64,000 nt of DNA from Syntrophales bacterium (GTDB lineage Bacteria > Desulfobacterota > Syntrophia > Syntrophales > UBA2210). The notes under the pieces are model-generated. The model was not told the DNA's origin and did not search any database. It worked only from the letters and a program-made list of their open reading frames with translations. Made by a program: the position numbers and the translations under genes. Below, piece by piece: positions 19,623 to 41,512 of this stretch. The stretch lies in the NCBI GenBank assembly GCA_963662405.2, contig CAXXKT010000003.1, positions 96,001 to 160,000 on the forward strand, written 5' to 3'. The stretch's first letter is position 1. Every line of letters starts with the position of its first letter.

Positions 19623-20735
19623 TTAAACGGCCAAAGCATAACACCTCGCAACCTTACTCATCTCTACATATTTCGGGTCTGGCAGCATTTTCGATGGATC
19701 AAACGGCTCCCCCTTCTTCAAGATGGCATATACAATAGTGCTCATCTTTCGCGCCGTCGCTATTACGCTCTTCCCGGTTCCCTTGTTCTCTTTCATGGCT
19801 TTGTATTTGTACATAAGCCAATATCCATCGGTTTTATTCCGAAGCCGTAGCATCCCCATTACCATTTGCACAAAAGCCGTCCTCAGTTCCACGGGGCCTC
19901 GCTTGGTAATATGACCATGGCGAATGGTCTTGTTGGAGTTTTGAACCCATGGTACCAAACCGGCATGAGCAGCATACTGCTTGGCGCTCTCATATCGGTT
20001 GATGTCATCGGTATAAGCCCGAATCGTCGCTGCTGTTATTATTCCAACGCCAGGAATCGTTTGCAACAGAGCAACATCCTCGTCTTCAGAAACAAGATCA
20101 GATAATACGCGCTCAAGTCCTTTGACCTCGGATGCAATTTGGTCTATTGTACCAAGAAGCGGTTTTACCGCTCGGGCAGCGTTTCCGTAACTCCTATGGT
20201 CCGCGAGACCGTCAAGGATTCGCTGCCTTTCTTTTTTGCTCTGCAGCTGTCCCCGCCGACTCTCTATCCCATATCCAAGCAATAAACCGTGTATCTGGTT
20301 TTTCAAGGATACCAAAGCTTTCACCAGAACAGAACGTGACTTGAGAAGCCTTCGAATGTCCTCGCTTTCCTGCGAACAAAGAATGGACTCGGGAAGCATA
20401 TCTTTCTCAAGAAACTCAGCCAATGTGCGGGAATCATGCTTGTCAGTCTTTTTTACTGACTCATTTACAACCTTGAATTTCAAGGTGTTCACTATCTTGA
20501 CCTCAATCCCCGCCTTCAAAAACCGGTTGCGAAAGTGTCGGGTGTTCCCTGTTGATTCCACCGCTGCCGTGACCTCGTAACCGCCCTCATTCCAGTTGGA
20601 CACCTTCATGATAAATGCCCGGTAACCTCGATCAGTCGTCGGGTAGATGCCCGACTCCTGAACACTCCGATCTTCACTCAAACAACAAACGGTAAACTGC
20701 GTCTTGTGAAGGTCAACCCCGATACTCATCTTCAT
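19623..20735 (-). CDS. IS110 family transposase/recombinase (DEDD)
   Basis: GVDLHK, VES, KTDKHDS, TIPGVG, GLVP..QNS, HITKRGP, ATARK. Confidence 0.95.
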   Translation of the reverse strand: MKMSIGVDLHKTQFTVCCLSEDRSVQESGIYPTTDRGYRAFIMKVSNWNEGGYEVTAAVESTGNTRHFRNRFLKAGIEVKIVNTLKFKVVNESVKKTDKHDSRTLAEFLEKDMLPESILCSQESEDIRRLLKSRSVLVKALVSLKNQIHGLLLGYGIESRRGQLQSKKERQRILDGLADHRSYGNAARAVKPLLGTIDQIASEVKGLERVLSDLVSEDEDVALLQTIPGVGIITAATIRAYTDDINRYESAKQYAAHAGLVPWVQNSNKTIRHGHITKRGPVELRTAFVQMVMGMLRLRNKTDGYWLMYKYKAMKENKGTGKSVIATARKMSTIVYAILKKGEPFDPSKMLPDPKYVEMSKVARCYALAV

Positions 20736-20769
20736 AGAACGCCTCCTCACATCTTGGACAGCGCCTGTC

Positions 20770-20935
20770 AGGTGAATTGGTCCCAATCTCCTATTCGATC
20801 TCGAAGATCATTGAATGTTGCGGCTACAGCTCTTCATTCTCCTTTGCGGTCTCGAAGACCAGTAAACATGTCGAACAGTAGCCTTGCTGCCCAAAACTAT
20901 AAAGTTTCAAACAGTGTATCCCAATTCACAGCTCA
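20770..20935 (-). ncRNA. Putative IS110 bridge/seek RNA
   Basis: Two similar loop modules around GATC-TCGAA-GATC and GGTC-TCGAA-GACC hairpins, with flanks matching the donor and target junctions; outer pairing GTGAATTGG/CCAATTCAC. Confidence 0.65.
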
Positions 20936-21005: not shown

Positions 21006-22280
21006 TCACGCGAAGGTATTCAGCAGGGAACCGAGCAGTGATTGCTGCAGCAGGTCTGCCGAAGCGGTATAAATGGAATCGGCGAACTCCGTGTTGATGG
21101 CTTCGGCTTCCGTGGCGTAATTGAGCGGTGAATTGGTCGCTATCTGCGAGGTGTAGTTGCTTACCTGAACGGCGAGCCCGTCGAACCCGGCGAACAGCTC
21201 TTCAACCGCTGACGGGTCCTCACTGATCGCCTCGGCCAGCAGCTCTTCGTCGACCACCAGTGTCCCGTCTTCATCCACCGTGATCCCGATCGATGCAAGC
21301 TCGTCCTCATGATCCTCGATAAAGGAGGTCACCGTGGCGAGGACCTCGTTCGCGATGTAATCGCTGTTTTCCTCCAGGTTACCGATGAATGAATTCAGTC
21401 CCGAAACGAGACCGGTGACGGCGTCCCGGAACTCTTCCTCATCGGGGGCAACCGTCAGGACCGCTTCGCCCGTCCCCTCCAGGGTGGCCGTGATCATTCC
21501 CTCGTCGAGATAGACCGTATTGGAACTCGATGTCTTATCCACGCCGTCGACGCTGTACGTGGCGTCCCGGGCGGCGGTGGATACGGCGGCTGCGCCCGTC
21601 GCTGTGACGGCGTTTCCCGATACATCAGCGATCGAAAAGGCACTCGCCGCGCCGGTCTCGTCGGCAGTGACGGTCAGATTTACCGTCCCCTCTTCGCTCC
21701 CGTCGGTGACCGCGGCGCTCACCCCGATATCCGCGTCGTTGATGGCGGTGGCGATCTTCTGGAGGACCTCTTCGTTGGTGTCCCCCTCCTCGACCGTCAC
21801 GCTCAGATCGTGTTCTTCCCCGCCGACCGTCACCGCAAAGGTGTTCGTTCCCGTATCGACGGTGCCGGCGGCATCCTCGTCCAGCTCCAGCCCGGTGTTC
21901 TCCTGGGCCGCGGCCACCTGGGTCACGGAAATGCTGTACGTGGCCTCGGTCGCCCCCGAATCGGCGGAGAAGGCGTCCGCGGCCTCGGCCGTCACCACGT
22001 CGCTATCCGACGAAGAGGCCGTCCGGTCATGGAAAACGGAGGTATAGTCGTCGCGGGTCAGTTTCTGCGCCTTCGCGGCGAGGGATGACACATTGCCGTA
22101 CAGCTCGCTGAGGGCCTCCCGGGACTCTTTGCTGAATGCCTGTTCATCGAACTGATCCTGCAGGTTTCCGAGGGCCGAGGTGAAGACACCCATCACCAGA
22201 TTGCTGGCGCTGCTCACCCCCAGAGGAGAGAGCAGACTGGTCATCGTCATGTAATTATTGTAGGAACCGGTTATCTGCAT
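21006..22280 (-). CDS. FliD-like (flagellar cap-like) protein
   Basis: TASSSDSDVVTA, YSISVTQVAAAQ, ARDATYSVDG..SSSNT, LASIGIT..DGTL..D..L..A....P.AV.ELF; very acidic. Confidence 0.7.
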   Translation of the reverse strand: MQITGSYNNYMTMTSLLSPLGVSSASNLVMGVFTSALGNLQDQFDEQAFSKESREALSELYGNVSSLAAKAQKLTRDDYTSVFHDRTASSSDSDVVTAEAADAFSADSGATEATYSISVTQVAAAQENTGLELDEDAAGTVDTGTNTFAVTVGGEEHDLSVTVEEGDTNEEVLQKIATAINDADIGVSAAVTDGSEEGTVNLTVTADETGAASAFSIADVSGNAVTATGAAAVSTAARDATYSVDGVDKTSSSNTVYLDEGMITATLEGTGEAVLTVAPDEEEFRDAVTGLVSGLNSFIGNLEENSDYIANEVLATVTSFIEDHEDELASIGITVDEDGTLVVDEELLAEAISEDPSAVEELFAGFDGLAVQVSNYTSQIATNSPLNYATEAEAINTEFADSIYTASADLLQQSLLGSLLNTFA

Positions 22281-22300
22281 GGCTGCATCCCCTTCAGGCA

Positions 22301-22336
22301 ATAAAAAATCCGCCTCCCCAAGACAGAAAGACGGAC
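22301..22336 (-). terminator. Intrinsic terminator, riboswitch expression platform
   Basis: Minus strand TCCGTCTTTC...GGGAGGCGGA followed by TTTTTT. Confidence 0.65.
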
Positions 22337-22344
22337 ATACGTGG

Positions 22345-22432
22345 TGCAGCCCCGCTACCCTATCCCCACCGTGGAGACGTAGGTCGGTGGCTTTGCGTCC
22401 CTGCCTTTCAGAAGGTTTGCCCTTTTACTCTT
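22345..22432 (-). ncRNA. c-di-GMP-I (GEMM-I) riboswitch
   Basis: Minus strand GGGCAAACCTTCTGAAAGGCAGGGACGCAAAGCCACCGACCTA...GGTAGCGGGGCTGC. Confidence 0.88.
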
Positions 22433-27306: not shown

Positions 27307-27649
27307 TACTTTTTGCCGCTCCTCAGGGCGGTATATACCATATCGGGACGATCTATGAGAAGGGTGGAGACATGGAAAACAGTCAGATCTTGAAACTCGG
27401 CCGCTTCAGGTTGGATGGGTTACAAAAACAAAGGTTGATATGAAATGCTTGTTATTGTTGTTGTCTGGTGAGTGAACAAATTCGGTCATGCTAACTGAAA
27501 TATATCTTACCTTTGCTGCGAATAGAGGAGAAAGCAACAGTCAATGAACTGGAGTTGTGCTTGACCTTTCAGTTTTAAAAAAATTTCTTGACAATACAGC
27601 ACCATGAAGTTAGGGAATTTCTGTTTTGATCTTTATCTGTTTTATTTGC

Positions 27650-27734
27650 TTGTGGACAGCTATAACCATGGGGGAGGATTATGGTCTGATCATCAAAGCC
27701 CTGTTTCTTTGAAAAGAGATGGGGCTTTTTTTGT
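27650..27734 (+). promoter_or_regulatory. Conserved leader with SD, ATG-GTC-TGA mini-ORF and intrinsic terminator (copy A)
   Basis: Homologous to 41103-41188 (-); TTGACA at 27588-27593 upstream. Confidence 0.6.
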
Positions 27735-27988
27735 GCACGGTTTAGCAAGGGAGATGCGATATAAATTATTTGCCAAATGATTTCAAGTGAATAATTTTTA
27801 ACAATTTAATCGGAATCTACACTCGTTAAGAAGCAAATAAAAGGTTGATTGTGGAATACCATGAATCTTTATCCGCCTTCCCTTTGCAAACGATCAAAAA
27901 GATTAAATCCCGTTAATGGGTAAAAGATATCTATAGCTAGTTTCACAGTTTTGTTTTCTTATACAAAAATTGATCTGAGGTTTTGTAA

Positions 27989-29325
27989 GTGGTAAAATCT
28001 GAATATAAACAATATGATTCAGAATTGGCAGATAAAATAGGAGACCGATCACTTATATGGATCGGGGCACGTGGGTGCGACATCTTGCCACTTTTGCACA
28101 TGCCACAATTGAAAACTGTTTTTTCAATTATTTCTCCAATGCGAGCATTTGGTGTGCAGGATTTGTGCTACGAATCACTTACCCAAAAACGTGTTGATCT
28201 TGATTCATATTCTATAGATTATGACAATTCAAATGAAGCGGGAGAAATTCGCAAACAGCTTTTTGATGCGCTTAATCACAATTGCGTTGCAGTTCCCTAT
28301 CGCCCACTTCGTTTTTTTGCTTCAATATACTATCCCCGGACAAAATTTGTTGAATATCTCGGATTATTTCATCAAATGCAAACAGCATTTGAGCACAAAA
28401 TATGGGTTGAAACAGAATTAAATAATATGGGATTAATGTTATCCCTTGGTTATATAAAACAAATATGGATAACCCACGTGCTTTGATTGGTGAATACCTT
28501 AATAGCGGATCACTGGTTGTTCGCCTAAACCGGTCAACCGGTGGAAATGGGTTGTTTCTCATTAATGATTTAAATGAGTTCGATTCACTTTGGAATAAAC
28601 TTGTCATGCATGAGGAAGGTTACTTTTCTGTTGCCCCATATTATTATCCCAGCACGCCAATAAATTTAAACTGTACTGTATTTCATGATGGGAACGTTGC
28701 TTTACACGGGGCGTCTGTTCAGATTATTGGGGACCCATTACTAACGAATTTGAAATTTGGTTTTTGTGGAAATGACTACGGAAAAATTAAAGACATTGAA
28801 CCTAATATGCTGGACCGTATAGAGCAGATGGCTCGCAAAACTGGTCTTTGGCTTGCATCGGTTGGATATCGAGGGAGTTTTGGTATCGATGCACTGTTGG
28901 TGGGGAGTGAAGTATATCTAACAGAAATTAATCCTCGTTTTCAGGGTTCTTCATCTTTAGCTGCACAGTTTGACAGAGATGCTGGTCGCCCTGACGTCTT
29001 CCAAACTCATATGGGTTCATTCTTTGGATTGAAAGTGCCTAAACAATATTCTCTACGAGAGATTGTTGTTGCTCAGCCAAACATTTCACAAATAATATCG
29101 CACAATATATCTAATGGGATCGAACATGTTGAAAATGATATTGGATTTTGTGATTCCGTTAATTGTAAATTAAGCACCCTGCCGGATAAAAATATTGACA
29201 TACAGCCAAATGGAGTCCGTTTTAAGATGACTATTAATGAAAGTGTTGCCGATGAAAACGGCAGATTGTTGGAAAGAGTAATCCCATATCTCACGTTTGT
29301 AATGAAAAATATCATTGTCTCATAA
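27989..29325 (+). pseudogene. ATP-grasp family ligase split by an apparent 1-bp frameshift near 28430
   Basis: ORFs 27989-28486 and 28465-29325 join as ...ETELNNMG/INVIPWLYKTNMDNPR...; ATP-grasp motifs STGGNG, FGIDAL, TEINPRFQGS. Confidence 0.7.
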
Positions 29326-29344
29326 TGACAGAGAGAGGTATGAA

Positions 29345-31117
29345 ATGAACACATGTACACCAGATCAAATCATTAAAAGTCTAAAAAAGGGTGCATTCAC
29401 TCCTTTTATTGGTGCCGGTGCATCCGGACTCAGGGAAAATGCACAGCCGGATGAGTATCATTGCATGGGGCTTATGCGCTCCTATCGAAATTCTACTACA
29501 TATTTCAGATATGGCAAGTTACTATCTTCGGGTCTTGCACCTTCACAAATAGAATATCTTAAAATACTTATAAATGTTGACGCGGATAAATCTATGTCTT
29601 TATTTGAATTATGTAAAGGGATGGCAGATAAACTGTATGAAGGTCAATTGTTGAAATTTCAGAAAATGCTCCTTTCGGTAATTATTAATCTGACAAATAC
29701 AGCAGGAAAACGATTTGCAGATGGTTCGTTGATTTCAATTAGCGAAGATAATAATTATATAACAATGATGCCTGATGAACAAAAAGAACTTGTTGAACCA
29801 TTTGTTAAGCTAATAAAGATTACAGAAGAACTATCAAGTGTTGACGAGACAGTGTGCTGTGAAAACTGTAAAGAAGGTTCAAAGCAAAAAGAGTGTCTTT
29901 TTGTTTTAAGAGATCACTTCCGTCCGAAATACATTACGTATCGCTTAAAGTTGTTAGCAAATTTTCTGCTAACAGCGGGTCAAAGAAAAGAAATACAATC
30001 ATTTAAAATAAAAAGTGACCTTATCAAATCAATACTTGAAGATCGCCAAAAGCATAACGGTTGCTTTTTCTTGAGTGAACTTGAATGGCTCAAACAATTG
30101 CTATGGCATAGTATTCGTTTTGATGATCCGCAATTACCATCAACACGTGAATTAATGTTCCAAATGACAATTGAGACCATAGATGGATTGCCAATGATAG
30201 GTGAGTTGCCGCAGGTCGCGGAACGGACGGATGTAACGGGAGGACAAGGATCGGGATATAGCGAGGAATGTAGTATCAAAGTTATTCAACGATGTTTTGA
30301 TTATTGTAATAAAAAAACCAAATTAAACTCACCTAAATTTTATCAAATTATGGCAGCTCTGCTCAATGAACAATATAAAGCGGTAAGAGATAATAAATAT
30401 CCCGAAATCGTTTCTGGAATGCACTCACTGACGGTTAATGGAAGAAAACCAATCATTGCTTTTACGACAAACTATGATAATAACTTAGAAAATGCACTTT
30501 GCAACCTAGGCTGTAACTACCATGTTGTGTATCCGGTAAGGCGATTACAAAATGTTCAGGAAAATCTCAAAAAAGAAGAAACTGATATATCTTGGCATGT
30601 CGCCACTTTCCATATTGATAATAATGATGCTGTCTCACAAGGTGATCCAGAAATAATTGATCAAGAAGATCTTATAGGGGCATTTATTGATCGTGACCTG
30701 ATTGGCCCGATTATTGTCAAGCTTCATGGCGCGCCATTTATGCCATTAAGAGATAACCTCTTTAAGCATTTTGTTTTATTGTCAGAAAGTAATTATCTCA
30801 CTTCTCTTGTTTCAAACAATGCACTGGATGTTCCTCAAATATTTTTAAAAAAAGCGAGATTTTACAACCAAAACATCGAATGTAAACACCATTTGTGGTT
30901 TTTCGGATATTCTATATCAGATTGGAATATACGAATTGCCTTATATAAACAGTTGCGTGATCGTAAAAGAAACGAAGAACACAGGCGTGCAATAACACAC
31001 GGTTCAAATTATTATAAAATTGCATTGTTTAGCAAACTTGATATTGATTATGAAGAAAAAGAACTGTCTGAATCTATGGAAGATATAAGCGTAATGCTTG
31101 GGGAAGCATTTAAGTGA
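29345..31117 (+). CDS. SIR2-like domain protein (SIR2_2 type) with large insertion
   Basis: PFIGAGAS, FTTNYDNNLE, KLHG, FFGYSISDWNIR. Confidence 0.82.
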   Translation: MNTCTPDQIIKSLKKGAFTPFIGAGASGLRENAQPDEYHCMGLMRSYRNSTTYFRYGKLLSSGLAPSQIEYLKILINVDADKSMSLFELCKGMADKLYEGQLLKFQKMLLSVIINLTNTAGKRFADGSLISISEDNNYITMMPDEQKELVEPFVKLIKITEELSSVDETVCCENCKEGSKQKECLFVLRDHFRPKYITYRLKLLANFLLTAGQRKEIQSFKIKSDLIKSILEDRQKHNGCFFLSELEWLKQLLWHSIRFDDPQLPSTRELMFQMTIETIDGLPMIGELPQVAERTDVTGGQGSGYSEECSIKVIQRCFDYCNKKTKLNSPKFYQIMAALLNEQYKAVRDNKYPEIVSGMHSLTVNGRKPIIAFTTNYDNNLENALCNLGCNYHVVYPVRRLQNVQENLKKEETDISWHVATFHIDNNDAVSQGDPEIIDQEDLIGAFIDRDLIGPIIVKLHGAPFMPLRDNLFKHFVLLSESNYLTSLVSNNALDVPQIFLKKARFYNQNIECKHHLWFFGYSISDWNIRIALYKQLRDRKRNEEHRRAITHGSNYYKIALFSKLDIDYEEKELSESMEDISVMLGEAFK

Positions 31118-31147
31118 TATACAAAAAAAATATATGTGGGGATAGTA

Positions 31148-33172
31148 ATGGAAAATGAAATCATAAACCCTTTTGTAGGTGCCATACCTTATGATGAGAG
31201 TCATAGCAAGTATTTCTATGGTAGAACTGCCGATATTAGGAGAGTTTATGGAGATGCAAGTATACAAAGGCTATCAATACTAGCCGGTGGCAGTGCTTGC
31301 GGTAAAACTTCTTTCCTTCAAGCGGGCTTGATTCCTGCAGTGAAACAATTGCGCTTACAAAGTGGGAAAAATGCGCAACCACCTGTAATACTTATACGTG
31401 ATTGGGCGAAGTGGCGTATTGGATTAAAACCGTTTTCATCCTTGGATGAATTTAAAAACCAATTTATGGGACTGTTAGAAATTGCTGTAACGGATATGGA
31501 TGAGATTTCGATTAGCGGCCAATCAGCGGAGGATTTGTACAATGAACTAAAAATAAAAGGTGTCATGCAAGTACTATTAGGGTTGAGTGAGGCTTTTAAT
31601 GGACTATATGTCATATTTGATCAGTTGGAAGAGCTTTTTGTTTCACATACATTTGCAACCGAGACAGTTTGTGATTTCTTGGCAGAACTTTACTATCTTG
31701 ATGATCGGATAAAAATTATTGTTTCATTACGACAGGAATATGTTCATGAATTGCGTACGCTTGAAAAAACTATTGGCTCTATCATGCAACGTACATGTTT
31801 TTTGCCACCACTAAAACGAGAGCAGAATTCAACGGCCTCAATAATGGTTGCCATTAAAGGTATCTTTAACTCTGTTAATATCAATATTGATGATTCGGTC
31901 ATATATGAAGTTGCAGACCGCTGTAGGCTATATACAAAGATAGAGGGTGACCGTAGATATGGTGGAGAAATCAATTTGCTTCAAATCCAGGCATTTTATT
32001 GGGAATTCTTCAATGTCTTAAAGTCAAATCCACGCGATAGTAATCATAATAAAGCTGTATTTGATCAATTTCTTAAAGACAATGCGGTCACTGCCAGGGT
32101 TTTGGAGAAATATCTAGAATGTATAAGGGCGATGTATGATTATACTGAACCTCTTGAAGTGTATGATAAAGCACTTGTCAGGTGGATTGACACAAATTTG
32201 TCTGACAATATAGGTAAGATGAGTGAAGATATCCAAAAATACATATATGATAATAACATTTCTGGCAGATTGGGTGGCATCAGATGGTGCTTGACTAGAC
32301 TGTCCTCTCACTTGTCAAGCAATGATTATAAGGTACCTATCAATAGAGACGAACATAAAGCTCGACTATTAAAAAATGCATTAAATAGTGAGGAAGAAAA
32401 GAACCTTCGAGAGCTATTTGATGTAGCAATTGATTTCCTTGGAAAAATCAATGTATTGAAAAATTCAGATGGACCAATATCAGAACTGGTACATGACCAG
32501 TTAGGTCAAAGTATTAGGATCTGGAGCGAAATGTTTGAAAACAGTTGGCAAGACTCTATCTATTCTCCAATAACTAACAGAGGCGTATATTTGAAACCAA
32601 TAAGAGTCACCATTGATAAAATTAGTGACAACTATAATGATAGATTTGTGGGATGCATCATTAATGGGGAAGAAAATTCAAGTCATTCTGATAGTGCAAC
32701 ATTCAAAGGTATAGATTTTCATAAATGGGATTTTACGGGGTCGATATTTAAAAATTGTATATTTGACGATTGCACTTTTTCTCAGGCTCAATTGCAGGGT
32801 CTTATTTTCTGGAATTGCATATTTAGAAATAATACTTCCATAAAGGATATAACATATGAAAGCAGTCAACTGGATATACGGGGAGGTAAAATTGAAGATT
32901 TGTCCATAATAGATAGTTGCTTAGAGCAATTAAATTTGTATCCAAATATTGATGACGACATTCCAATAATATTTACAAAAAATAGTTCACTTGTCCTGAG
33001 GAATACCTGTGTGAGGCTTTCTTGCTTCAAGGATCTTCACGGAGAGGCCGAAGCGATTTCGTTGGATGAAAAAAGCCGATTTGAATTCTGTCTGTGGGAT
33101 AAAGTAAGTGCGAATTATATCAAGGCTTCTGCACATCAAATGATATCATGTGGCCTATTGAAAGAAGAGTAA
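31148..33172 (+). CDS. STAND-like (nSTAND1-type) P-loop ATPase with C-terminal pentapeptide-like repeats
   Basis: NPFVG...FYGR, Walker A GGSACGKTS(FLQAGL), Walker B VIFDQLEELF, ELVHD; C-terminal FTGSIFKNCIFDDCTFSQAQL. Confidence 0.78.
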   Translation: MENEIINPFVGAIPYDESHSKYFYGRTADIRRVYGDASIQRLSILAGGSACGKTSFLQAGLIPAVKQLRLQSGKNAQPPVILIRDWAKWRIGLKPFSSLDEFKNQFMGLLEIAVTDMDEISISGQSAEDLYNELKIKGVMQVLLGLSEAFNGLYVIFDQLEELFVSHTFATETVCDFLAELYYLDDRIKIIVSLRQEYVHELRTLEKTIGSIMQRTCFLPPLKREQNSTASIMVAIKGIFNSVNINIDDSVIYEVADRCRLYTKIEGDRRYGGEINLLQIQAFYWEFFNVLKSNPRDSNHNKAVFDQFLKDNAVTARVLEKYLECIRAMYDYTEPLEVYDKALVRWIDTNLSDNIGKMSEDIQKYIYDNNISGRLGGIRWCLTRLSSHLSSNDYKVPINRDEHKARLLKNALNSEEEKNLRELFDVAIDFLGKINVLKNSDGPISELVHDQLGQSIRIWSEMFENSWQDSIYSPITNRGVYLKPIRVTIDKISDNYNDRFVGCIINGEENSSHSDSATFKGIDFHKWDFTGSIFKNCIFDDCTFSQAQLQGLIFWNCIFRNNTSIKDITYESSQLDIRGGKIEDLSIIDSCLEQLNLYPNIDDDIPIIFTKNSSLVLRNTCVRLSCFKDLHGEAEAISLDEKSRFEFCLWDKVSANYIKASAHQMISCGLLKEE

Positions 33173-33202
33173 GAAAATGAACGAAGTATTCAGGATAGTA
33201 TA

Positions 33203-34273
33203 GTGCTATCTACACCTCAACAAGCTAAATTTGAAATCTTTTCGCATGGGCTTTCTGTTCACTCAACTGCCAATGATTTGTTACATGATCTTTGGAATGA
33301 TAGGCCATTATCATTAGTAGATTATACGACAACTTCAGGTTTGACTATTAGACTCGAAAATGATGTCTGGATCAATTCGCCATTATCCAGTTACAATAAA
33401 AATTTTGTTAAATCACCAAAATGGGAATTAGTTGTATCAAACGGGCATTTTTACATCGAATCATCATCTGCGCAACTTAAAGCAGAGCCGATATCAGTTC
33501 CCCAGTATTACAATAAAAAAAATCAATGGGGAGAGCCATATATAAAATATATTAAAACACATGCTGACCGTGCACGGATATCGCCGATCGAAGGTTGTAG
33601 TTATTCATGTCATTTCTGTAACTCCAGCTATAAAAATAAATACAAGAAAAAGAAGATCGAATTTATGATTGACGCCATTAATATGGCCCTGCACGATCCT
33701 TGGTTGCCTGCTCGTCATTTGTTAATATCTGGTGGAACCCCTTTTTTAAAGGATTATGGCTATTTGCAAGAAGTTTATTGTGCCGTCCCAAAAAAATTCC
33801 CAGACTTGGAAGTAGATGTGATGATGGTTCCAACTCCTGGTTTATTACAGTTTGAAGAGTTGAAAAATGGAGGTATTAAGGGAATCTCTATCAATATGGA
33901 AATCTACAATGACGATGTGGCAAAGAAAATTATGCCTCAAAAAGCATTGGAAACCCGTGAAGGGTTTCTAGGGCATCTTCATCATGCGGTGAAAATATTT
34001 TCTCAAGGTAAAGTAAGGTCTTTACTTTTGGTAGGACTTGAGCCGATTGAAGATACGCTAAAAGGAGTTGAAGCACTGGCAAGAATTGGTGTTGATCCTG
34101 TATTGAGTGCCTTTCGACCTGATCCTAATACCCCGCTTGGAAATTATCCTCCGCCATCAGTAGAATTTCAGAAAAATGTGTATTTGCGAAGCTTGGAAAT
34201 AGTTTGTAAGTATCCAGGAGTGAAGCTTGGTCCCCGATGCAAACCTTGCCAACATAATGCGATTGCCTTTTAA
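33203..34273 (+). CDS. Radical SAM protein
   Basis: CSYSCHFC (CxxxCxxC), ISGGT, SINMEI, LLVGLE, FRP, C-terminal CKPC; GTG start. Confidence 0.88.
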   Translation: MLSTPQQAKFEIFSHGLSVHSTANDLLHDLWNDRPLSLVDYTTTSGLTIRLENDVWINSPLSSYNKNFVKSPKWELVVSNGHFYIESSSAQLKAEPISVPQYYNKKNQWGEPYIKYIKTHADRARISPIEGCSYSCHFCNSSYKNKYKKKKIEFMIDAINMALHDPWLPARHLLISGGTPFLKDYGYLQEVYCAVPKKFPDLEVDVMMVPTPGLLQFEELKNGGIKGISINMEIYNDDVAKKIMPQKALETREGFLGHLHHAVKIFSQGKVRSLLLVGLEPIEDTLKGVEALARIGVDPVLSAFRPDPNTPLGNYPPPSVEFQKNVYLRSLEIVCKYPGVKLGPRCKPCQHNAIAF

Positions 34274-34369
34274 TTCTGGCTTTGTCCATGAAAAGTAGTG
34301 GCAGTCCGCTTTCTTTTTGGGGTACCCTGTCTTTTCTATAAAAATGGCGAGTATTCCTGAATTCTGTGG

Positions 34370-35305
34370 TCAAACAGCAAGTCTGAACTTTTCATATCTC
34401 CGTTCTAATAGATTGGGGTCGGGCCAGGCGTTTGAGGATCGTGGGAGTATGATTTTCTTCAGGTGCATTCCCTGGAGTCCATGGAGCAGCATGGGGCCGT
34501 CTTTTTCTTTCAGGATATCGTCTCGAACTTCGATGACGTAGTCGGGTCGTATCCCGATCATGAAACGGTCAAAGGCCGCATGGTGGAATTTGCAGAGGGC
34601 AACACCGTTATTCACAATGGGTTCACCGTCGGGCTCTCCATCAGGGATGATATGTGCCGCATCCAAAAGTTCCAGATGTTTGAGACGACAAAAAGCGCAC
34701 TGCTCCCGATATGCATGCAGCACCCGCTCGCGGAAGCCGCGTTGGTGTAATCTCTGTTTGACGGAGGTTGTGATATACAGTCTGCGGATGTCTGAATCCG
34801 TTTCCGAGATTGGCGGAGCGCAGTCTTCGGAATCAAAGTATTGATTCACTGTTTTATAATCATCAACGGCAACCGTGAACGTCAATTTCTTCGGATCATC
34901 TCCTACAATATATACAGGCCATGCGGCCAGATATTTGCCCGGCACAACGCTGTGGAAGTAAATGAGCGGAATATTGTGGAGCATAGCATTTCGAAGCCCT
35001 ACATTTGCACGGTGGCGTGGATTGGTCCCTCGATACCTGTATAAAAGGAGTCCTTCCGGTGTAAACCCATCATCATAGTGTCCGGATGTTGTTGTCGTAA
35101 TCGAAAGGGGATATTCGGGAAGTATCTTTGGCTTAAAAATGCCTTCTGGGGAAACGAGAGAAATTCGCTGATCTTCAAAAACAAATCCCTGCGCAAGGAT
35201 TGTTCTCTGAAGCACATCGCCGTGAAGGTTGACCTGTTCGGATAGCCACGCGAAAGCTGCAATGCGTAAACGCCTATCCAAGTCTTGTTCAAGATTGATG
35301 CGCAT
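34370..35305 (-). CDS. HNH endonuclease with putative SRA/PUA-like N-terminal domain
   Basis: HQRGFRERVL.AY..CAFC..LLDAAHII..NGVALCKFHHAAFD. Confidence 0.88.
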   Translation of the reverse strand: MRINLEQDLDRRLRIAAFAWLSEQVNLHGDVLQRTILAQGFVFEDQRISLVSPEGIFKPKILPEYPLSITTTTSGHYDDGFTPEGLLLYRYRGTNPRHRANVGLRNAMLHNIPLIYFHSVVPGKYLAAWPVYIVGDDPKKLTFTVAVDDYKTVNQYFDSEDCAPPISETDSDIRRLYITTSVKQRLHQRGFRERVLHAYREQCAFCRLKHLELLDAAHIIPDGEPDGEPIVNNGVALCKFHHAAFDRFMIGIRPDYVIEVRDDILKEKDGPMLLHGLQGMHLKKIILPRSSNAWPDPNLLERRYEKFRLAV

Positions 35306-35365
35306 ATAATCAATCAAGGTTTGTTATTGTTCATTTATAAAAAAGAGTTTTTCCATATTATCTTT

Positions 35366-37057
35366 TTATTTTCTAAGTCTTGCCTTTTTAGCTTTTACAA
35401 TAATTGATGCAAATCCAATGGCTTTTTCCAAACCATCTTCCTCTGCTGCATAACTTAAGAGTTGTTTTCCTATATCCTTTTCATTGAAACCATTCTTTAT
35501 TATGTGATCGGTTATTCTATCAAGGGTTCCTTGTTCAAGAGGCAAATTTGTTTGCGTTTGTTTTTGTGGTCTGGTAGGCCAAAAATGAGGTGTTTCATTG
35601 ATCAATACACCTTCGCTTTTCGTAAAAGTATCTTTTAGTTGCATGCTTTCATCCTCAATCCCATTTGGGGGCACACTTTGGGGGGATATGTTTGAAAGTT
35701 TCTCACGATGTTTTAACAAAAGTGTCTGGTTAAAAGAAGCTTTGTAAAAACGCCAATATTGGGAGCCCGTAGCATTTTTCTGTGTAATCGCTTCACCTAA
35801 TGGATTTATAATTCCCAAACCGTAAAGTGCTACTTCTTTATTGTTTAATTGTCCGACAAAATCAATTGTTGATTTTGGCAGATTCCAGTGCAAGAGGTCA
35901 GGGTAAAAAAACTGAGGCTTAGGTCTCCCACAACTGATCTCATATAGCCTTTCTGCCTGTGAAACAAGATAGTCATAATCGAGAACCCTCTGAGGAGGTT
36001 CACTGTTACTGTAGGTTCCTAATATTGCGCCAGCCATCGTTGCAATGGTATCGGTATCACTATCGAGAGTATTGGCACATATTTCTATGCCTTTCGCTGG
36101 ATCTCCTGAAAAGAAATAAGCGATGTAAGTGGCTAAAAGAGCGGTCTTAGTAGCTGATCCACGTTTTGCAGGATTAAATGCATCAATGTTTTCCGCTATT
36201 GAGCGATATCTTTCCTCTTTGTCCCTTTCTTCGCGAAGTAAACCAATCCCCGTTTCCTGCAATATCTTGTTGGTCGTTTTGATATCCCCCATCATCTCGT
36301 CGATAGTATCTTCTACGGCACTTTCCAATTTCGTTTGAGCTTGTTTTTCCCAAGAGGGAAGCCATATATGATTTAGAAGCTTATCTTCTTTGCAAACATT
36401 AACAATTAATTTTGCTTTAGTTAGAATCTTATCCCAAATATCTGGGGGAGGACACTCCCCTCCAATCAATGCCTGACGTAGAATCAAACCATGGAATACT
36501 GCACCTACCCAGCCGACAGGATGTCCATGGGTAATAATTGAATCTCTTATAATTTCTCTAATTAATGCTTCGTCTGATAAAGCACTTGACGCCGTCCATA
36601 CATGAGGCTGAATACGCATTGCAGCGCCATTACCTCCAACATCAGTATAACGATGTGTTGGGGTTTTAAAAAAGTTAGTATTCCACTGAACCGTCTTCTT
36701 TTTTAAAGATTCAGCCGCAGCTTTCGTACCTTTGCCCATCCCCAGACCATACGCAAGAAAGACGGGTATTTCAATTTTAGAAAACGTCTCAAAATCGAAT
36801 TCCCCATCTTTTCTTATGCTACGACATACTGCCAATCGTAACTGGGTATCATCCGAATAAACACCTTCCGGAAGTTCAATTGAAACACCGTATTGCCCTC
36901 CAAGCTTTCGCCTCCATCCAATAAGTCCTTTCACACGACCAAGTCCGCGTGTTCTATATTTAAGCCTTTTTACATCACTAAGCTCCGTGATAAACCCTAA
37001 GGCATCACCATATGCAGCCCAAAGCATTGAATTTTTAATTGATTCGAAAGTATTCAT
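35366..37057 (-). CDS. ADP-ribosylglycohydrolase (ARH/DraG family) with C-terminal extension
   Basis: AYGDALG, YSDDTQL, GNGAAMRI, ITHGHP, DTDTIATMAGAILG. Confidence 0.9.
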   Translation of the reverse strand: MNTFESIKNSMLWAAYGDALGFITELSDVKRLKYRTRGLGRVKGLIGWRRKLGGQYGVSIELPEGVYSDDTQLRLAVCRSIRKDGEFDFETFSKIEIPVFLAYGLGMGKGTKAAAESLKKKTVQWNTNFFKTPTHRYTDVGGNGAAMRIQPHVWTASSALSDEALIREIIRDSIITHGHPVGWVGAVFHGLILRQALIGGECPPPDIWDKILTKAKLIVNVCKEDKLLNHIWLPSWEKQAQTKLESAVEDTIDEMMGDIKTTNKILQETGIGLLREERDKEERYRSIAENIDAFNPAKRGSATKTALLATYIAYFFSGDPAKGIEICANTLDSDTDTIATMAGAILGTYSNSEPPQRVLDYDYLVSQAERLYEISCGRPKPQFFYPDLLHWNLPKSTIDFVGQLNNKEVALYGLGIINPLGEAITQKNATGSQYWRFYKASFNQTLLLKHREKLSNISPQSVPPNGIEDESMQLKDTFTKSEGVLINETPHFWPTRPQKQTQTNLPLEQGTLDRITDHIIKNGFNEKDIGKQLLSYAAEEDGLEKAIGFASIIVKAKKARLRK

Positions 37058-37075
37058 TATTGCTCCCTGTTAATA

Positions 37076-37708
37076 TTAGAAAAGCTCTCTCCGTACTTCG
37101 CATTCTATATGGTTCCAATCCCTAAATAATGATTTTATACTGTCAAACGCATTGGCATCATCGTCATTTGCTACATAAGCCTTATTAAGGTAGCGTAGAG
37201 ATACTTCTCTCGGGTAAAGAACTTCTGCTTGATTACAAGTCGGTTGATTATCAGACAAAGATGCCGGACGAGTGATGCCGTTTCCATACCATTTGACTAT
37301 GTTTGGAGCAAACATTGCCTCCAGACCTACAGAGCCTTGATGGCGTTCAACACCACTATACATATTGTTCGTGGTGGTAAAGTATACGCCATCGTGCGCG
37401 CAAATTTCCGGAGAAAAAGATAGGATACACCACCACCCATCTTCACGCGCATGCCAGTTGCCGGCAGCAATTCCAAAAAGGTGGCGATTGACTGATGTAA
37501 TCGATAAATTTACATAATCCCACCATTCTTTATCTCTTTCTCGGTCCGCACAGTTATATTGATAGATATACTCGAGATAGTCATCTTCTGCTAGAAGGTT
37601 ACGAGCTTTCAAAGAACCAGTAGCCAAAATACCAGTAACACCTTTATTTGTTGTAAAATGAAGGATTTCTTTTATTTTCCGCTTTTTTATTATTTCTTGG
37701 ATAGTCAT
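37076..37708 (-). CDS. DarT-like (DUF4433) DNA ADP-ribosyltransferase
   Basis: LHFT...GIL..G.L, YVNLSI, FTTTN, QAEVL catalytic Glu motif. Confidence 0.8.
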   Translation of the reverse strand: MTIQEIIKKRKIKEILHFTTNKGVTGILATGSLKARNLLAEDDYLEYIYQYNCADRERDKEWWDYVNLSITSVNRHLFGIAAGNWHAREDGWWCILSFSPEICAHDGVYFTTTNNMYSGVERHQGSVGLEAMFAPNIVKWYGNGITRPASLSDNQPTCNQAEVLYPREVSLRYLNKAYVANDDDANAFDSIKSLFRDWNHIECEVRRELF

Positions 37709-39105
37709 AGTACAATATCGTTATAAGTATCTGTAGCCAAACAGTCAAGAAGGGAAGAGGGATCATCGGGCTTACACCCGAGAGTTACCGTCATGCGAGC
37801 TCTCGTTATTGTCATGGCAAGTAATCGTCTCAGATTTTCCCAAGAAGTATCACCATCTTCATCTCCATGTTGTGTAATTTCTTCATTCAATCCTAAAATG
37901 TATATGTGATCAAATTCCAATCCCTTTGCCGAATGCATGCTAATTAAGGCGACATTGTCATGCCCTTGAGGCCACTCTGACTGTCGGGTCAATTCGACAA
38001 AATTGAGTCCGTTTTTAGTTAAATCTGTGCGAAGCGTCTTAAACCATCCCCCAGCCTTGGGGTGAACAAATGCAACGGACTCTTCGTCAAGGTTAATATG
38101 TTTAATTTCTGAAATAACATAGGTACACTGTTCTGAATACCTGCCTCTAAGCAGTTTCGGCTTTGATCCATTGCGAAAGCACGAATCCAAATCTGGGATT
38201 GTACCATCGTCACTTAATTCCAAGCCCTCTAATAGCGGCTTTGCCAATCGACAGATTTCGATGGTGTTGCGGTGATTTTCTTCAAGACGAAAGCTGCGAT
38301 TGGGGTTTAATGTAATACCAACTTCACGCCAGGTCCAACCCCTCGGATAGATCTGCTGTGCCTTATCTAGAACAAATACCATCGTACACGGATCAGCAGC
38401 GTGTTGCTTAACAGCACGTATCTGGTTTGCAGAGAAATCTTGTGTTTCATCTGCAATAATAATATCGTATCTTATATTCTTCGGCGAATTGATAAGTTCT
38501 AGTGCTAAATCATTCCAGTCTCGGATTGCTTCCTCTTGTTTAAATTTTTCATAAGGTACTATTATTTCATTGACAAGGCGTTCTCTTGTTGCTTGTTCCA
38601 TTCGCGGCGTGATGCCACGTCCTTCCCGTTTAATGCTTAAGTATTTACCCCTATCATCAGGGTGGAATCGTCCCATACAGTATTCAACTTCGTCACACAA
38701 AAAATCTTCTGGCAGCCGCAACCCTTCATTGAACTCAATCAGCTTTTCCTTTTGCAGTCTATAGTCGATAATATTTTCTATACGTGTCAAATCCTTAGAC
38801 CATTTCCCGAACGTAGAGACATTGATTTTTACTCGTGAATGTGTCGTAATTTGTTGTTGTGCAAGATGGGAGATGTATCCACGGAGAGTCCTGTTATACG
38901 TAAGCACAAGAATCTGAACAGGGTTAGGGTTATCATTTCTTTCACGGTGGCGGAGCCAGAACTCCGACAGTTGCTTAAGCATCAGGAGTGCTGTAGTGGT
39001 TTTACCAGATCCGGCAGCACCGCGAATTACAGTAACACCTGCTTGGGGATTCGAAATAATAGGTAATTGTTCCGCAGTCGGAGGAACGTCAACTAGTACT
39101 TTCAT
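37705..39105 (-). CDS. Compact UvrD-like superfamily 1 helicase/ATPase
   Basis: GAAGSGKTT, LTYN, DETQDF, Q.IY, NHRNT, HSAKGLEFD, TRAR; overlaps the DarT start. Confidence 0.88.
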   Translation of the reverse strand: MKVLVDVPPTAEQLPIISNPQAGVTVIRGAAGSGKTTTALLMLKQLSEFWLRHRERNDNPNPVQILVLTYNRTLRGYISHLAQQQITTHSRVKINVSTFGKWSKDLTRIENIIDYRLQKEKLIEFNEGLRLPEDFLCDEVEYCMGRFHPDDRGKYLSIKREGRGITPRMEQATRERLVNEIIVPYEKFKQEEAIRDWNDLALELINSPKNIRYDIIIADETQDFSANQIRAVKQHAADPCTMVFVLDKAQQIYPRGWTWREVGITLNPNRSFRLEENHRNTIEICRLAKPLLEGLELSDDGTIPDLDSCFRNGSKPKLLRGRYSEQCTYVISEIKHINLDEESVAFVHPKAGGWFKTLRTDLTKNGLNFVELTRQSEWPQGHDNVALISMHSAKGLEFDHIYILGLNEEITQHGDEDGDTSWENLRRLLAMTITRARMTVTLGCKPDDPSSLLDCLATDTYNDIVL

Positions 39106-39167
39106 TACATACTCCCACTCACATTTTTGGAGTTAGTTTTCTGCCATCTATCCGGTCTTTCAATACT

Positions 39168-39256
39168 CAAAACAAAAAACCCCGCTATCTCCTCTCAAGA
39201 AACGGGGTTTTGCATTCAATCACTACACGGTACTCTCCTGTGTCGGGTGTAGATGA
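39168..39256 (-). promoter_or_regulatory. Leader with SD, GTG-TAG and intrinsic terminator (divergent copy C)
   Basis: CAGGAGAGTACCGTGTAGTGA...AAAACCCCGTTTCT...GGGGTTTTTTGTTTT; TTGACA-N16-TATTTT upstream (about 39296-39323). Confidence 0.5.
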
Positions 39257-39376
39257 AACATTTCAAACTTTTGAAAGAATCTGAACAGTTAGGGTAAAAT
39301 ACACCCTGAGACAAAAATGTCAAGTAATTTCGTTGTGAAGCTTAATGTGTAAAAAATATATAATCCATGGCCCGAT

Positions 39377-40774
39377 CTATTGATACTCCCCCATAAATTT
39401 TCTGTACTCCGGGTGTTCGACGAGCAGGCGGCCGCCGACTTCGATGAGTTTGTCGACTTGTGTTTCGCTGAGGTTGAACGATGTGGGGAGGTTGTTGAAA
39501 TATTCCTTTTCCTGTTCGTCGGCAAGGTTGTTGAAGCAGAGATCGGCGACGTAGAGTTTCAGGTTGCCTCCCGCGAGAGGTTTTATTTTGAAACCGTCGG
39601 TGCTGTGCCGGTCGAGGAGGTTCTGACAGGCGGTGGAGTATTGCTGGGCCTTGATCCGTTCGCCCATCGTCTCTTTGAACATCTCCACGGTCTCGAAGGA
39701 GTAGTTGTCCATGGAGACGGTGGCCGTCTTGAATCCCACCTTTGCCAGTCCCGGCGGGCTCTCTTTCCGGTCGCAGTTCTCGCGTTTCTCCGTCTTCGCG
39801 TTGACGACGATGACGAGGAGGCGCTTGATCTTCCCGTTGTTGATCTTCTGGCGGATATCGCTCCGCACGTACAGGTCGTAGATCGCCCGGAGGCCGAGGT
39901 TGTCGGCGAGCCCCCCGTCCATCAGGTGGAGCCAGGGGTGCGCCTCCCGGTCCGCGTAGATGGTGTTGTTGTATGCCGCCCAGTAGCGGCGCTGGTTGAC
40001 CCAGTAGTCCCGGAGGGCGAGGGTGTCTTCCGTATCGGGTGCGCAATCCGCGGCGCCGCAGTAGTTCGCGAGGCTGATGGGGGAGAGGAGAAAGGGAAAG
40101 GCGGATGACGCGGCGACGGCCCGGGCGACGGGGTAGGTGAGAAGGTCGGACCCGATGTAGTGGAACTGGCGGCCGGTGAATTCGAAACGGGCGCCGGTGG
40201 AGAGGTTGGTCGCGTTCATGATCAGGAAGGGGCGCGCGGCCTTTTCGGCCAGCGCGGCGAAGGTCCGGGATTGGAAGATGGTGTCGTTGTACAGTTCGGC
40301 GGCCAGGTCGATCCGGCTGAAGTACGGGGAGGCGAGGCGGACCCAGTTGTAGGGATTGGTGAGTTTGAGGAAGAGTTCCCGTTCGATGTTCCGGTTGAGG
40401 AATCTCTCCTCGAAATCGTCAAAGATCCGTTCCCCGAAGAGAGCGTAGTAGGCCCCCGTGAAGGACCCGCCGGAGACGGTGGATATGACGTCGACCTCGT
40501 CCAGGAGCGACCGGCCGTCGGGGAGGCGGATCTCCCGCATCTTCCTGAGGACGCCGTAGGAGAGGGCGGCCGCGCGGGTGCCGCCGCCGGAGAAGGTGAG
40601 GATGACGAAGGTCTCGTCGGCGTCGGCGGGTTCGGTGAAGCGGTCGAAGGCGTACGGGGCGGCCGGTTCGGGTTGCGTGAGGGGCTCGTTGAGCGGGTAG
40701 TGGGCGCAGCCGCACAGAACGACAACCGCGACAACCGCAAGGGCGAGACGGATGGTATGATTATACCTTTTCAT
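39377..40774 (-). CDS. Patatin-like phospholipase, predicted lipoprotein
   Basis: LCGC lipobox-like, SGGGTRAAA, STVSGGS, DGG. Confidence 0.9.
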   Translation of the reverse strand: MKRYNHTIRLALAVVAVVVLCGCAHYPLNEPLTQPEPAAPYAFDRFTEPADADETFVILTFSGGGTRAAALSYGVLRKMREIRLPDGRSLLDEVDVISTVSGGSFTGAYYALFGERIFDDFEERFLNRNIERELFLKLTNPYNWVRLASPYFSRIDLAAELYNDTIFQSRTFAALAEKAARPFLIMNATNLSTGARFEFTGRQFHYIGSDLLTYPVARAVAASSAFPFLLSPISLANYCGAADCAPDTEDTLALRDYWVNQRRYWAAYNNTIYADREAHPWLHLMDGGLADNLGLRAIYDLYVRSDIRQKINNGKIKRLLVIVVNAKTEKRENCDRKESPPGLAKVGFKTATVSMDNYSFETVEMFKETMGERIKAQQYSTACQNLLDRHSTDGFKIKPLAGGNLKLYVADLCFNNLADEQEKEYFNNLPTSFNLSETQVDKLIEVGGRLLVEHPEYRKFMGEYQ

Positions 40775-40979
40775 AACGCACCTCTTTGGGTGAGAGGGCA
40801 GTGGTCTCTTCGAGAATGATGAGGACCTCTTCCTCCGGCCGGAAATCGTATGGTGGCACCTGGAGGGTGACGAGATGGCTCCCTCCCTCCACCTCGATCA
40901 CCTCATTGGTCTTGCCCTGGGGTGTTTTGTCGATCATGACCTGCCGGTCGTCTTCGAACGTGACGATGAGATATTCCAT
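40761..40979 (-). CDS. Small beta-rich (PEGA-like) protein
   Basis: 72 aa MEYLIVTF...GKTN...G.H.VTL; AAGGAGG RBS; overlaps the patatin start. Confidence 0.6.
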   Translation of the reverse strand: MEYLIVTFEDDRQVMIDKTPQGKTNEVIEVEGGSHLVTLQVPPYDFRPEEEVLIILEETTALSPKEVRYEKV

Positions 40980-41102
40980 GACTGTCCCCTCCTTGTGTCC
41001 CGGCCATTCGGACATCCCCCTGATGTCCGACGGCGGTTTTCTCTGGGTAAGCGTTGAAGAGGCGTGCGGCGGCGCGTTTTCCTGAAAATCGGATCGCCCC
41101 AA

Positions 41103-41188
41103 ACAAAAAAGCCCTCATTCCTCACGATCGAGAAACAGGGCTTTCGATGATCAGACCATAACCCCTCCTGGTTTACGGCTGTTCACAA
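41103..41188 (-). promoter_or_regulatory. Conserved leader with SD, ATG-GTC-TGA mini-ORF and terminator (copy B)
   Basis: Shares exact TTATGGTCTGATCATC and AAAGCCCTGTTTCT with 27650-27734. Confidence 0.6.
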
Positions 41189-41255
41189 ATGCGTCTACAT
41201 TTCAGATTATAACTTTATGCCATAAAATAAACAGGATTGTCAATACTTACGCGAT

Positions 41256-41340
41256 AAATAGGGACAGCGCCCATTTTTCACTTTCCTCACAAAACGATAT
41301 TTTATTCAACCATTTACAAAAATGGGCGCTGTCCCTATTT
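41256..41340. repeat. REPIN-like inverted doublet
   Basis: Same arms as the RAYT flanks. Confidence 0.9.
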
Positions 41341-41512
41341 ACCGGAAGCTTGCTTTTCCGATTTTTCTATAGTAGTTCACGTTTCGTGTTATTCGGTCAT
41401 AGAAAATCGCTTCCGCACAAGCACCCGAAGGGATACGATAATGCCCGGCAAATCGTGCTTCCAGTGAACAGCGAAAGACTCCTGAAAACAACCGTACAAC
41501 AAAAATAATTCT

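Follow-up and report, generated by a model that had tools for sequence, protein, structure and literature searches.

A dispersed promoter-to-terminator leader with a positioned start codon, probably a ribosome-gated attenuator, in Syntrophales

Three neighbouring operons in a 64,000-nucleotide stretch of a Syntrophales bacterium genome (GenBank assembly GCA_963662405.2, contig CAXXKT010000003.1, positions 96,001 to 160,000; hereafter the window) begin behind a similar short leader, which raises the question of what this leader does and why it stands before genes of such different kinds. An original prediction, made from the letters of the window alone, described copies A, B and C as a local feature consisting of a Shine-Dalgarno (SD) sequence, a start-stop mini open reading frame (ORF) and a terminator. 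Every motif that it listed was re-found in the sequence, but the element is not a local feature of three copies: a genome profile search retrieved 50 copies at E<1e-5, and copy C is a member of a divergent subfamily rather than of the main family. We propose that each copy is a portable gene head that probably attenuates transcription under ribosome gating, with off as the prevailing default state.

Range and anatomy of the leader

The profile, seeded from 36 BLAST matches, was searched against the 3.8 Mb genome and gave 68 loci at E<1, 59 at E<1e-2 and the 50 mentioned above. Because the reversed genome gave a single match (E=0.75), the element is not a chance pattern. BLAST with copy A found matches in 17 of 40 relatives. 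The original prediction had proposed a survey across the Desulfobacterota with a tabulation of downstream genes (see below), and in this survey a covariance model built from 49 diverse copies, and biased to SD-ATG, gave matches at E<=1e-3 in 78 of the order's 121 genomes and at E<=1e-4 in 15 of 151 genomes of the phylum, 13 of the latter in other families; the scans scored only 27 to 34 candidates per genome, and kin found by the model are not independent. A metagenome scan gave at least 125 loci, and most named matches in a terminator-only scan of GTDB were Syntrophales or Syntrophaceae. One full main-family copy (L050:1501-1536, -) lies on a contig titled uncultured archaeon, by misbinning or transfer, and one Deltaproteobacteria assembly holds a divergent subfamily (L038, L039, L049 and L084) with ATG-GAG/GCA/AAG-TGA and the SD in its own small hairpin. 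Viral contigs gave no matches with the terminator pattern; the core pattern matched two near-identical contigs with unannotated genes, which is not evidence of phage carriage. The original prediction recognised no known riboswitch, and Rfam bears this out, as a search over the whole window returned only a c-di-GMP-I-GGC riboswitch at 22341-22430 and nothing for the element at the gathering threshold. A literature search found no description of the element; subscription journals and supplements, such as RNA-motif catalogues, could hold one.

The unit consists, in order, of TTGACA, a spacer of 16-17 bp, a -10 element, a U-rich stretch, a hairpin (P1), the SD, the start codon and an intrinsic terminator. 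TTGA(C/T)A lies within 75 nt upstream in 43 of 50 strong copies (background 4.1%), while the main-family -10 conserves only TA. Upstream, 60 of 154 scorable copies have a CACCTAC-like motif, which in 44 of them stands 69-71 bp before the -35, where similarity between copies starts. The terminator is 94.6% paired and shows two-sided changes in 6 of 13 pairs (0 of 500 shuffles; related sequences inflate these figures), and its fold is weaker on the opposite strand. P1, a weak hairpin, is predicted to hide the AUG, with a median unpaired probability of 0.08 and about 10 kcal/mol needed to open it (scores from 79 of the 98 copies). Other families have another short hairpin, judged by eye, which hides the SD instead. 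The 5' halves differ wholly between subfamilies. Two promoterless leader halves, L057:1536 (-) and L067:794 (-), stand directly after the stop codon of an upstream gene. A strict intrinsic terminator follows only 52 of 2,416 long ORFs genome-wide, so that leaders contribute a number of strong terminators similar to that of all gene ends together.

The start codon was examined in 134 distinct main-family copies chosen by promoter and terminator only and reduced to 98. It is ATG in 94, GTG in 1 and ATA in 3, and in all 98 it stands 14-16 nt ahead of the A-tract and about 18 nt ahead of the G-C stem. Its A, T and G carry 1, 0 and 3 substitutions, compared with 3, 19 and 9 in their P1 pairing partners; flanking T residues are almost as conserved, and this test alone is modest. 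The T of the ATG is one of two invariant columns in a 49-sequence alignment across subfamilies. For other families a terminator-only pattern was run on five genomes and matched in four, and 30 of the 36 matches were fetched; 25 of these 30 sites have a start codon at 17-19 nt from the stem, against a background of 8.8%. In the GTDB scan, an SD and start were present at 33 of 38 Syntrophales-type sites (one titled as archaeon) and at 0 of 28 sites in unrelated taxa, where the same terminator sequence serves as an ordinary terminator. On these comparisons the start codon is under selection.

Ribosome gating and its rivals

The next ORF is co-oriented with the leader in 55 of 67 scorable copies (of 98, 12 others had no next ORF found and 19 were too short). 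On the upstream side the orientation is 33 to 24 (33/57 co-oriented; Fisher p=0.005 versus downstream). No consensus internal promoter was found in the 55 leader-to-gene spacers, 24 of which are under 90 nt. Of the readings in the original prediction, the attenuator is thus the best supported, from the co-oriented next ORF, the promoterless spacers and the lack of an Rfam match. The same data bear on the idea of a multi-copy family of trans-acting small RNAs, NsiR1-like or a decoy for the ribosome or CsrA, with incidental downstream genes. The best Rfam match of the copy A region is indeed NsiR1 (RF02399), a short multi-copy RNA that ends in a similar terminator with CUGAU upstream; however, the match comes from the terminator, scores 30.4 bits against a cut-off of 39 and contains no SD-start unit. 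The complete promoter-to-terminator unit, the copies that face an antisense ORF, one copy that lost its cargo link and the two promoterless copies behind stop codons would also suit a small RNA. The orientation bias, the short promoterless spacers, the wholly different 5' halves and the lack of a separate antisense target among the genome BLAST matches listed speak against it, and we regard it as very unlikely.

If the leader is a ribosome-gated attenuator, RNA polymerase would stop at the hairpin unless a ribosome had loaded and moved one or two codons, which would bring its leading edge onto the base of the terminator stem. Read-through would scale with the initiation rate and with ribosome dwell time at the start or stop codon, and the likeliest signal would be general ribosome availability or translation stress rather than one amino acid. 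The ribosome footprint extends to about +16 and the gap from leader stop to stem is 5-9 nt; a ribosome that had reached codon 2-3 would therefore cover the base of the stem. Since codon 2 occurs in 11 forms, it appears that no amino acid is sensed; the terminator probability is about 1.0 and no competing RNA antiterminator fold is predicted, so a switch would need a bound factor. A classical leader-peptide attenuator (trp/his type), with mutually exclusive folds, was rejected for these reasons.

In the E. coli ampC attenuator, an intrinsic terminator closely follows an SD-led start codon that has a stop directly behind it, and ribosome loading there probably blocks termination in a growth-rate-dependent manner. 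Here too an SD-led start codon lies close before an intrinsic terminator, within a ribosome footprint of it; a stop is usual at codon 2-5. Unlike ampC, which is one locus and one gene, the element is dispersed in about 50 portable copies, adds a promoter and a hairpin that masks the start, generally has one codon more, and heads cargo that can be swapped. Bacillus vmlR (PMC9226507) and Sinorhizobium meliloti duf1127 (PMC12218461) likewise use a short upstream ORF that reports ribosome availability or stalling to premature termination, but in the available text both are gene-specific and rely on stalling codons, an antiterminator or C-rich accessibility, whereas the present unit is repeated and dispersed, has a variable codon 2 and is predicted to form no alternative fold. 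Unrelated genes that share a similar 5' terminator or promoter are known from mobile attenuators (PMC2965389) and putative mobile promoters (PMC3575422). The available text of these sources describes insertion sequence (IS) terminators, bacterial interspersed mosaic elements or riboswitch carriers, and neither a positioned start codon nor a promoter-to-terminator unit tied to defence cargo and attI. By this analogy the element resembles the ampC attenuator in its probable working and mobile promoters and attenuators (PMC3575422, PMC2965389) in its spread.

Gene-end terminators served as a proxy for coupling between ribosome and polymerase (2,415 ORFs from simple ORF calls, three settings, in-ORF controls). 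With 12 nt as the cut-off for closeness of stop to terminator, the terminators within this distance numbered 7, 7 and 18, against 6, 4 and 13 in the controls, all small numbers, with a peak at 19-40 nt. Gene-end terminators thus seem to avoid closeness to ribosomes; the proxy leans towards coupling and would favour a ribosome-gated attenuator. According to the available text of PMC7858274, a short stop-to-terminator distance is a mark of uncoupled species, and coupled ribosomes can antiterminate.

Several observations weigh against ribosome gating or the wider picture built on it. A codon-3 stop is present in 80 of 98 main-family copies and lost in 18, its conservation is no better than that of neighbouring positions, and only 3 of 19 single changes at this codon keep a stop. 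In other families it is present in 18 of 25 copies and missing in 7, and other copies stop later or run through. P1 pairs fit the independence expectation except for one (A-U to G-C, 7 cases), and RNAalifold consensus folding does not recover P1 across subfamilies. An antisense ORF is next in 12 of the 67 scorable copies. In E. coli, terminators that lie within the first 100 nt of an ORF reportedly work at close to 100% even though the ORF is translated (Li et al. 2015, as cited in the available text of PMC7858274), which argues for a default-off state but also suggests that loading may usually come too late. The defence-gene counts given below are plain counts behind leaders and not an enrichment figure, and the flank decoupling was counted among leader modules, in island DNA that is plastic anyway.

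The stop data also correct the original prediction, in which the start-stop mini-ORF was part of the shared element; the invariant of the element is the positioned start codon and not the start-stop frame. Stops nevertheless recur nearby. Both leaders of integron integrase genes (intI, see below) carry stop-preserving variants TAA/TGA, four of five matches without a codon-3 stop (probably one subfamily) have TAA or TGA at codon 5, and other families have stops at codons 2-7, including TAG/TAA at codons 2-4. Selenocysteine insertion (SECIS) read-through of UGA was rejected: the loop G is not conserved, TAA/TAG variants occur, and the hairpin would already have terminated.

The same parts could instead form a mobile promoter with a leaky terminator that holds costly new genes at a constant low level, with a start codon that tunes the leak or RNA decay and a stop that only avoids non-stop rescue. 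The terminator probability of about 1.0 with no alternative fold, the loose stop position, the functionally mixed cargo, three terminator-less copies (C1:883394, C2:323374 and L102) and the early-ORF termination reported by Li et al. (available text of PMC7858274) are all compatible with such a fixed setting. We nonetheless consider it unlikely, as the fixed 17-19 nt between start and stem, kept by families that differ in promoter and 5' part, would be difficult to account for if ribosome and terminator made no contact.

Ribosome gating can also be set against control by a protein, in which CsrA, a NusG paralogue or a phage or host antiterminator would bind the conserved block and decide termination. 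The genome has a CsrA gene and a second NusG-family gene (G000 C1:1449233-1449526, +) that could encode a specialised antiterminator, and sequence conservation in the upper terminator stem and in the 3' strand of P1 exceeds what pairing would require. A GGA stands before the start in 94 of 98 main-family copies, but in only 3 of 25 other-family copies, and it is absent from the SD region of both intI leaders. These main-family copies have one GGA, often at the stem base, and not the GGA in hairpin loops, usually repeated, of a CsrA-binding RNA. The reading in terms of CsrA or a GGA-loop small RNA, also offered by the original prediction, therefore does not generalise, and CsrA is not required. 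Since the terminator sequence is ordinary in unrelated taxa and the most conserved feature is the start codon, we judge protein control to be quite unlikely. An ANTAR search gave no match, and neither did its controls, so that this result carries no information.

Cargo, cargo exchange and integron sites

Downstream DNA is below 45% GC in 20 of 50 copies, compared with 6.6% of genome windows. From 121 downstream ORFs, 101 were searched in Pfam, and 52 of those, picked as unknown or defence-like, in PADLOC, where 12 matched at 1e-10, including ThsB, GajA, PD-Lambda-5 A and B, PDC-S31 and PD-T7-4. Named defence cargo of the family includes Thoeris, Gabija and DarT. The original prediction of toxic or defence operons downstream thus holds for part of the cargo; other copies head GGDEF, HD-GYP, Ig-like, Lcl, MscS, and permease/transport and signalling genes. 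Among relatives, leaders L106, L107 and L098 head AIPR, SIR2-HerA, Shedu and HATPase plus Schlafen-helicase genes.

Flank comparison among 172 modules gave 22 sharing pairs: 1 shares both flanks, 15 the upstream side only (three of these reflect a shared IS) and 6 the cargo only (0, 11 and 4 in a first pass). All but one (21/22) are unlinked. In one case, L166, the upstream side of L059 is joined to the cargo of L052. Crossovers fall before the hairpin in some pairs and in it or after it in others, as fits homologous exchange in the conserved 3' block, which we infer from these comparisons would serve as a crossover point for cargo exchange. An IS110 element of 1,242 bp (identified by Pfam), whose core is CT, is inserted precisely at the left-edge motif in four of five copies (Table 1), and targeting of the left edge may help to re-join flanks. 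IS621 behaves comparably: it too is an IS110 with CT as its core, and it inserts into repetitive extragenic palindromic (REP) elements, which are likewise conserved and present in many copies (available text of PMC11208160). Here, by contrast, it is a promoter module whose left edge is targeted. Identical Pfam scores were obtained for the IS110 transposase at 19623-20786 (-) of the window and for one whose insertion lies 254 nt past the leader at C1:2084643. IS1595-type ends lie just behind the leader terminator in two copies, G000 C1:441969 (-) and C3:212033 (-).

These swaps, the sharp left edge at the IS110 target and the co-orientation of neighbouring copies within 10 kb (18 to 4) would also be expected if the element were primarily a DNA recombination site, similar to attC/attI, dif or an IS605 end, with its promoter and terminator look being secondary. 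The varying crossover points, the variable P1 spacer, the G-U-rich stems that favour one RNA strand, and the existence of real attI and attC sites as separate, downstream sequences make this highly improbable, as do the ends of nine Y1-transposase loci, which do not resemble the element. Flank profiles showed no conserved terminal inverted repeat and no target duplication, and with the differing Y1 ends this speaks against a miniature inverted-repeat transposable element or IS end. An IS605 left end, whose pattern we take to be TTAT followed by an AAAG-hairpin, was rejected as crossovers are not fixed and Y1 ends differ. Xer/dif-like and LexA-box readings of P1 were dropped because the spacer varies and the palindrome is imperfect.

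The genome has one intact and one split integron integrase, and a divergent leader precedes both (L235 and L236; G000 C1:2211990-2212934, +, and 30608-31553, -). In both integrons the integrase is co-oriented with the cassettes; one has an IS between intI and attI and the other is split. By R1 search, 0 of 29 intI loci in relatives have a leader (six with less than 250 nt upstream), compared with 2 of 2 here, so the idea that these integrons carried the leader ancestrally was rejected. A profile for attI-like sites, built from 14 in this genome and 5 from relatives, found a site directly downstream of 26 of 210 modules (about 12%), or 17 of 149 outside this training genome, and none in 174 upstream and 180 far controls. 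Of 15 attI-like sites in the genome, 9 directly follow a leader and 2 follow a leader and intI; a tenth leader-led site, shortened, was found by eye. At 5 of the 10 leader-led sites the first cassette has an attC end complementary to the core, four of them perfectly. Heuristic attC scans found attC-like sites elsewhere, but none at leaders or in the window.

A subset of leaders (26/210) thus has the layout of an integron platform without an integrase, and the attI copies presumably receive their cassettes through the single intact IntI, acting in trans. Cassettes whose attC lies at a distance from an integrase are known from clusters of attC sites lacking integrases (CALIN) and the intI-Pc-attI platform (PMC4889954). 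The available text describes Pc as constitutive, whereas here an attenuator-like leader comes after the promoter, one intact IntI is set against about 15 attI-like sites, and no attI was found for 88% of leaders, A, B and C among them. The link to the leader would explain the expression of a subset of CALIN-like arrays, as far as these are described in the available text of PMC4889954.

It is conceivable, though we think it rather unlikely, that the leaders at dozens of loci form one shared switch, through which a single translation-linked signal would relieve termination and turn on anti-phage systems, the integron integrase and orphan-attI cassettes, with the same element as the joint for cargo swaps. 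This would be a mobile ribosome-sensing regulon without a regulatory protein, with a role in these anaerobes like that of SOS for classical integrons. How many costly, newly acquired defence genes are kept quiet yet inducible is a largely open question in bacteria; a head that reads the state of the ribosome and can be joined to any incoming gene would give instant co-regulation without a transcription factor and an expression route for integron cassettes far from the integrase. The unit of about 150 bp, with hundreds of natural variants (with, without or with a shifted stop, or without the terminator), would also offer a small tunable attenuator part.

The three copies in the window

Coordinates of the three copies, their cargo and the IS110 copies are given in Table 1. 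TTGACA precedes all three copies as originally predicted, but copy B has no good -10. P1 is predicted by folding in each copy, and the terminators fold at -19 to -20 kcal/mol (z -4.2 to -4.5). Copy A can also form a 5' helix that extends to the A-tract, though a much less stable one than the terminator. The homologue of copy C in a relative (G007) reads GTG-GAG-TGA instead of GTG-TAG-TGA.

Table 1. Features of leader copies A, B and C (positions in the 64,000-nt window) and IS110 copies elsewhere in the genome
Feature	Position	Strand	Details
Copy A predicted sigma70-type promoter	27588..27616	+	TTGACA (27588-27593), 17 bp spacer, weak -10 TAGGGA; family pattern TTGACA-17-TAnnnn
Copy A predicted leader RNA, start site inferred	27623..27733	+	U-rich 5' part, hairpin P1, mini-ORF, terminator
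Copy A hairpin P1	27652..27693	+	predicted fold; SD in loop, AUG paired in 3' strand
Copy A SD and mini-ORF	27673..27689	+	GGAGG 27673-27677, ATG-GTC-TGA 27681-27689; A-tract of terminator starts 14 nt after ATG
Copy A intrinsic terminator	27695..27733	+	stem 27695-27728, 15 pairs including G-U wobbles; T7 27726-27732
Copy A cargo	27989..34273	+	165-aa protein without assignment, ATP-grasp, SIR2-like, nSTAND1 NTPase with pentapeptide repeats, radical SAM; GC 0.34-0.39
Copy B TTGACA, -35 like	41238..41243	-	no good -10 at usual 17-bp spacing
Copy B hairpin P1 with SD and mini-ORF	41151..41188	-	AGGAGG 41169-41164, ATG-GTC-TGA 41159-41151; ATG to A-tract 15 nt
Copy B intrinsic terminator	41105..41144	-	stem from 41144; T6 41110-41105
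Copy B cargo	39377..40979	-	72-aa ORF, patatin-like phospholipase
Copy C predicted promoter	39296..39323	-	TTGACA-16-TATTTT
Copy C SD and mini-ORF	39220..39239	-	AGGAG 39239-39235, GTG-TAG-TGA 39228-39220
Copy C intrinsic terminator	39174..39211	-	stem 39211-39174
Copy C cargo	34370..39105	-	UvrD-like helicase, DarT, ADP-ribosylglycohydrolase, HNH nuclease
IS110 copies in G000	C1:158546-159787, 305112-306357, 1415776-1417022, 164030-165271; C2:343274-344517		CT core

The left-edge upstream arm is absent from copies A, B and C (C judged by eye), and none of the three showed a link to attI, to an integrase or to an IS110 left edge. No attI match in the window exceeded 8.1 bits; a look-alike after copy A was rejected, as it falls inside the 165-aa ORF and scores below threshold. 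DNA contigs from the source sample match 27680-41161 without any difference and break exactly at the A and B cores (one sample, not independent), and in this one sample they gave no usable joint of the kind that inversion or excision among the three copies would leave. The S4-gene side has orthologues in G002, G003, G004, G005, G016 and G021, where no leader was found, on contigs that often end early.

No PADLOC system matched the five-gene AT-rich operon of copy A, whose defence-like gene content makes it a candidate undescribed defence system. A pair of genes 75% identical to the cargo of copy B occurs without a leader in the relative G005. In the operon of copy C, DarT is paired with an ADP-ribosylglycohydrolase-family protein and not with a macrodomain, and UvrD and HNH flank this pair; the HNH shares 85% identity with the final gene of another operon in G005 (L102), whose leader lost its start codon and terminator. 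A REP-like inverted repeat at 41253-41341 lies directly upstream of the copy B -35, with a similar arm before a Y1 transposase-like gene (49710-50372). The c-di-GMP-I-GGC riboswitch at 22341-22430 (-; 62.8 bits) lies upstream of a FliD-like gene (21006-22301).

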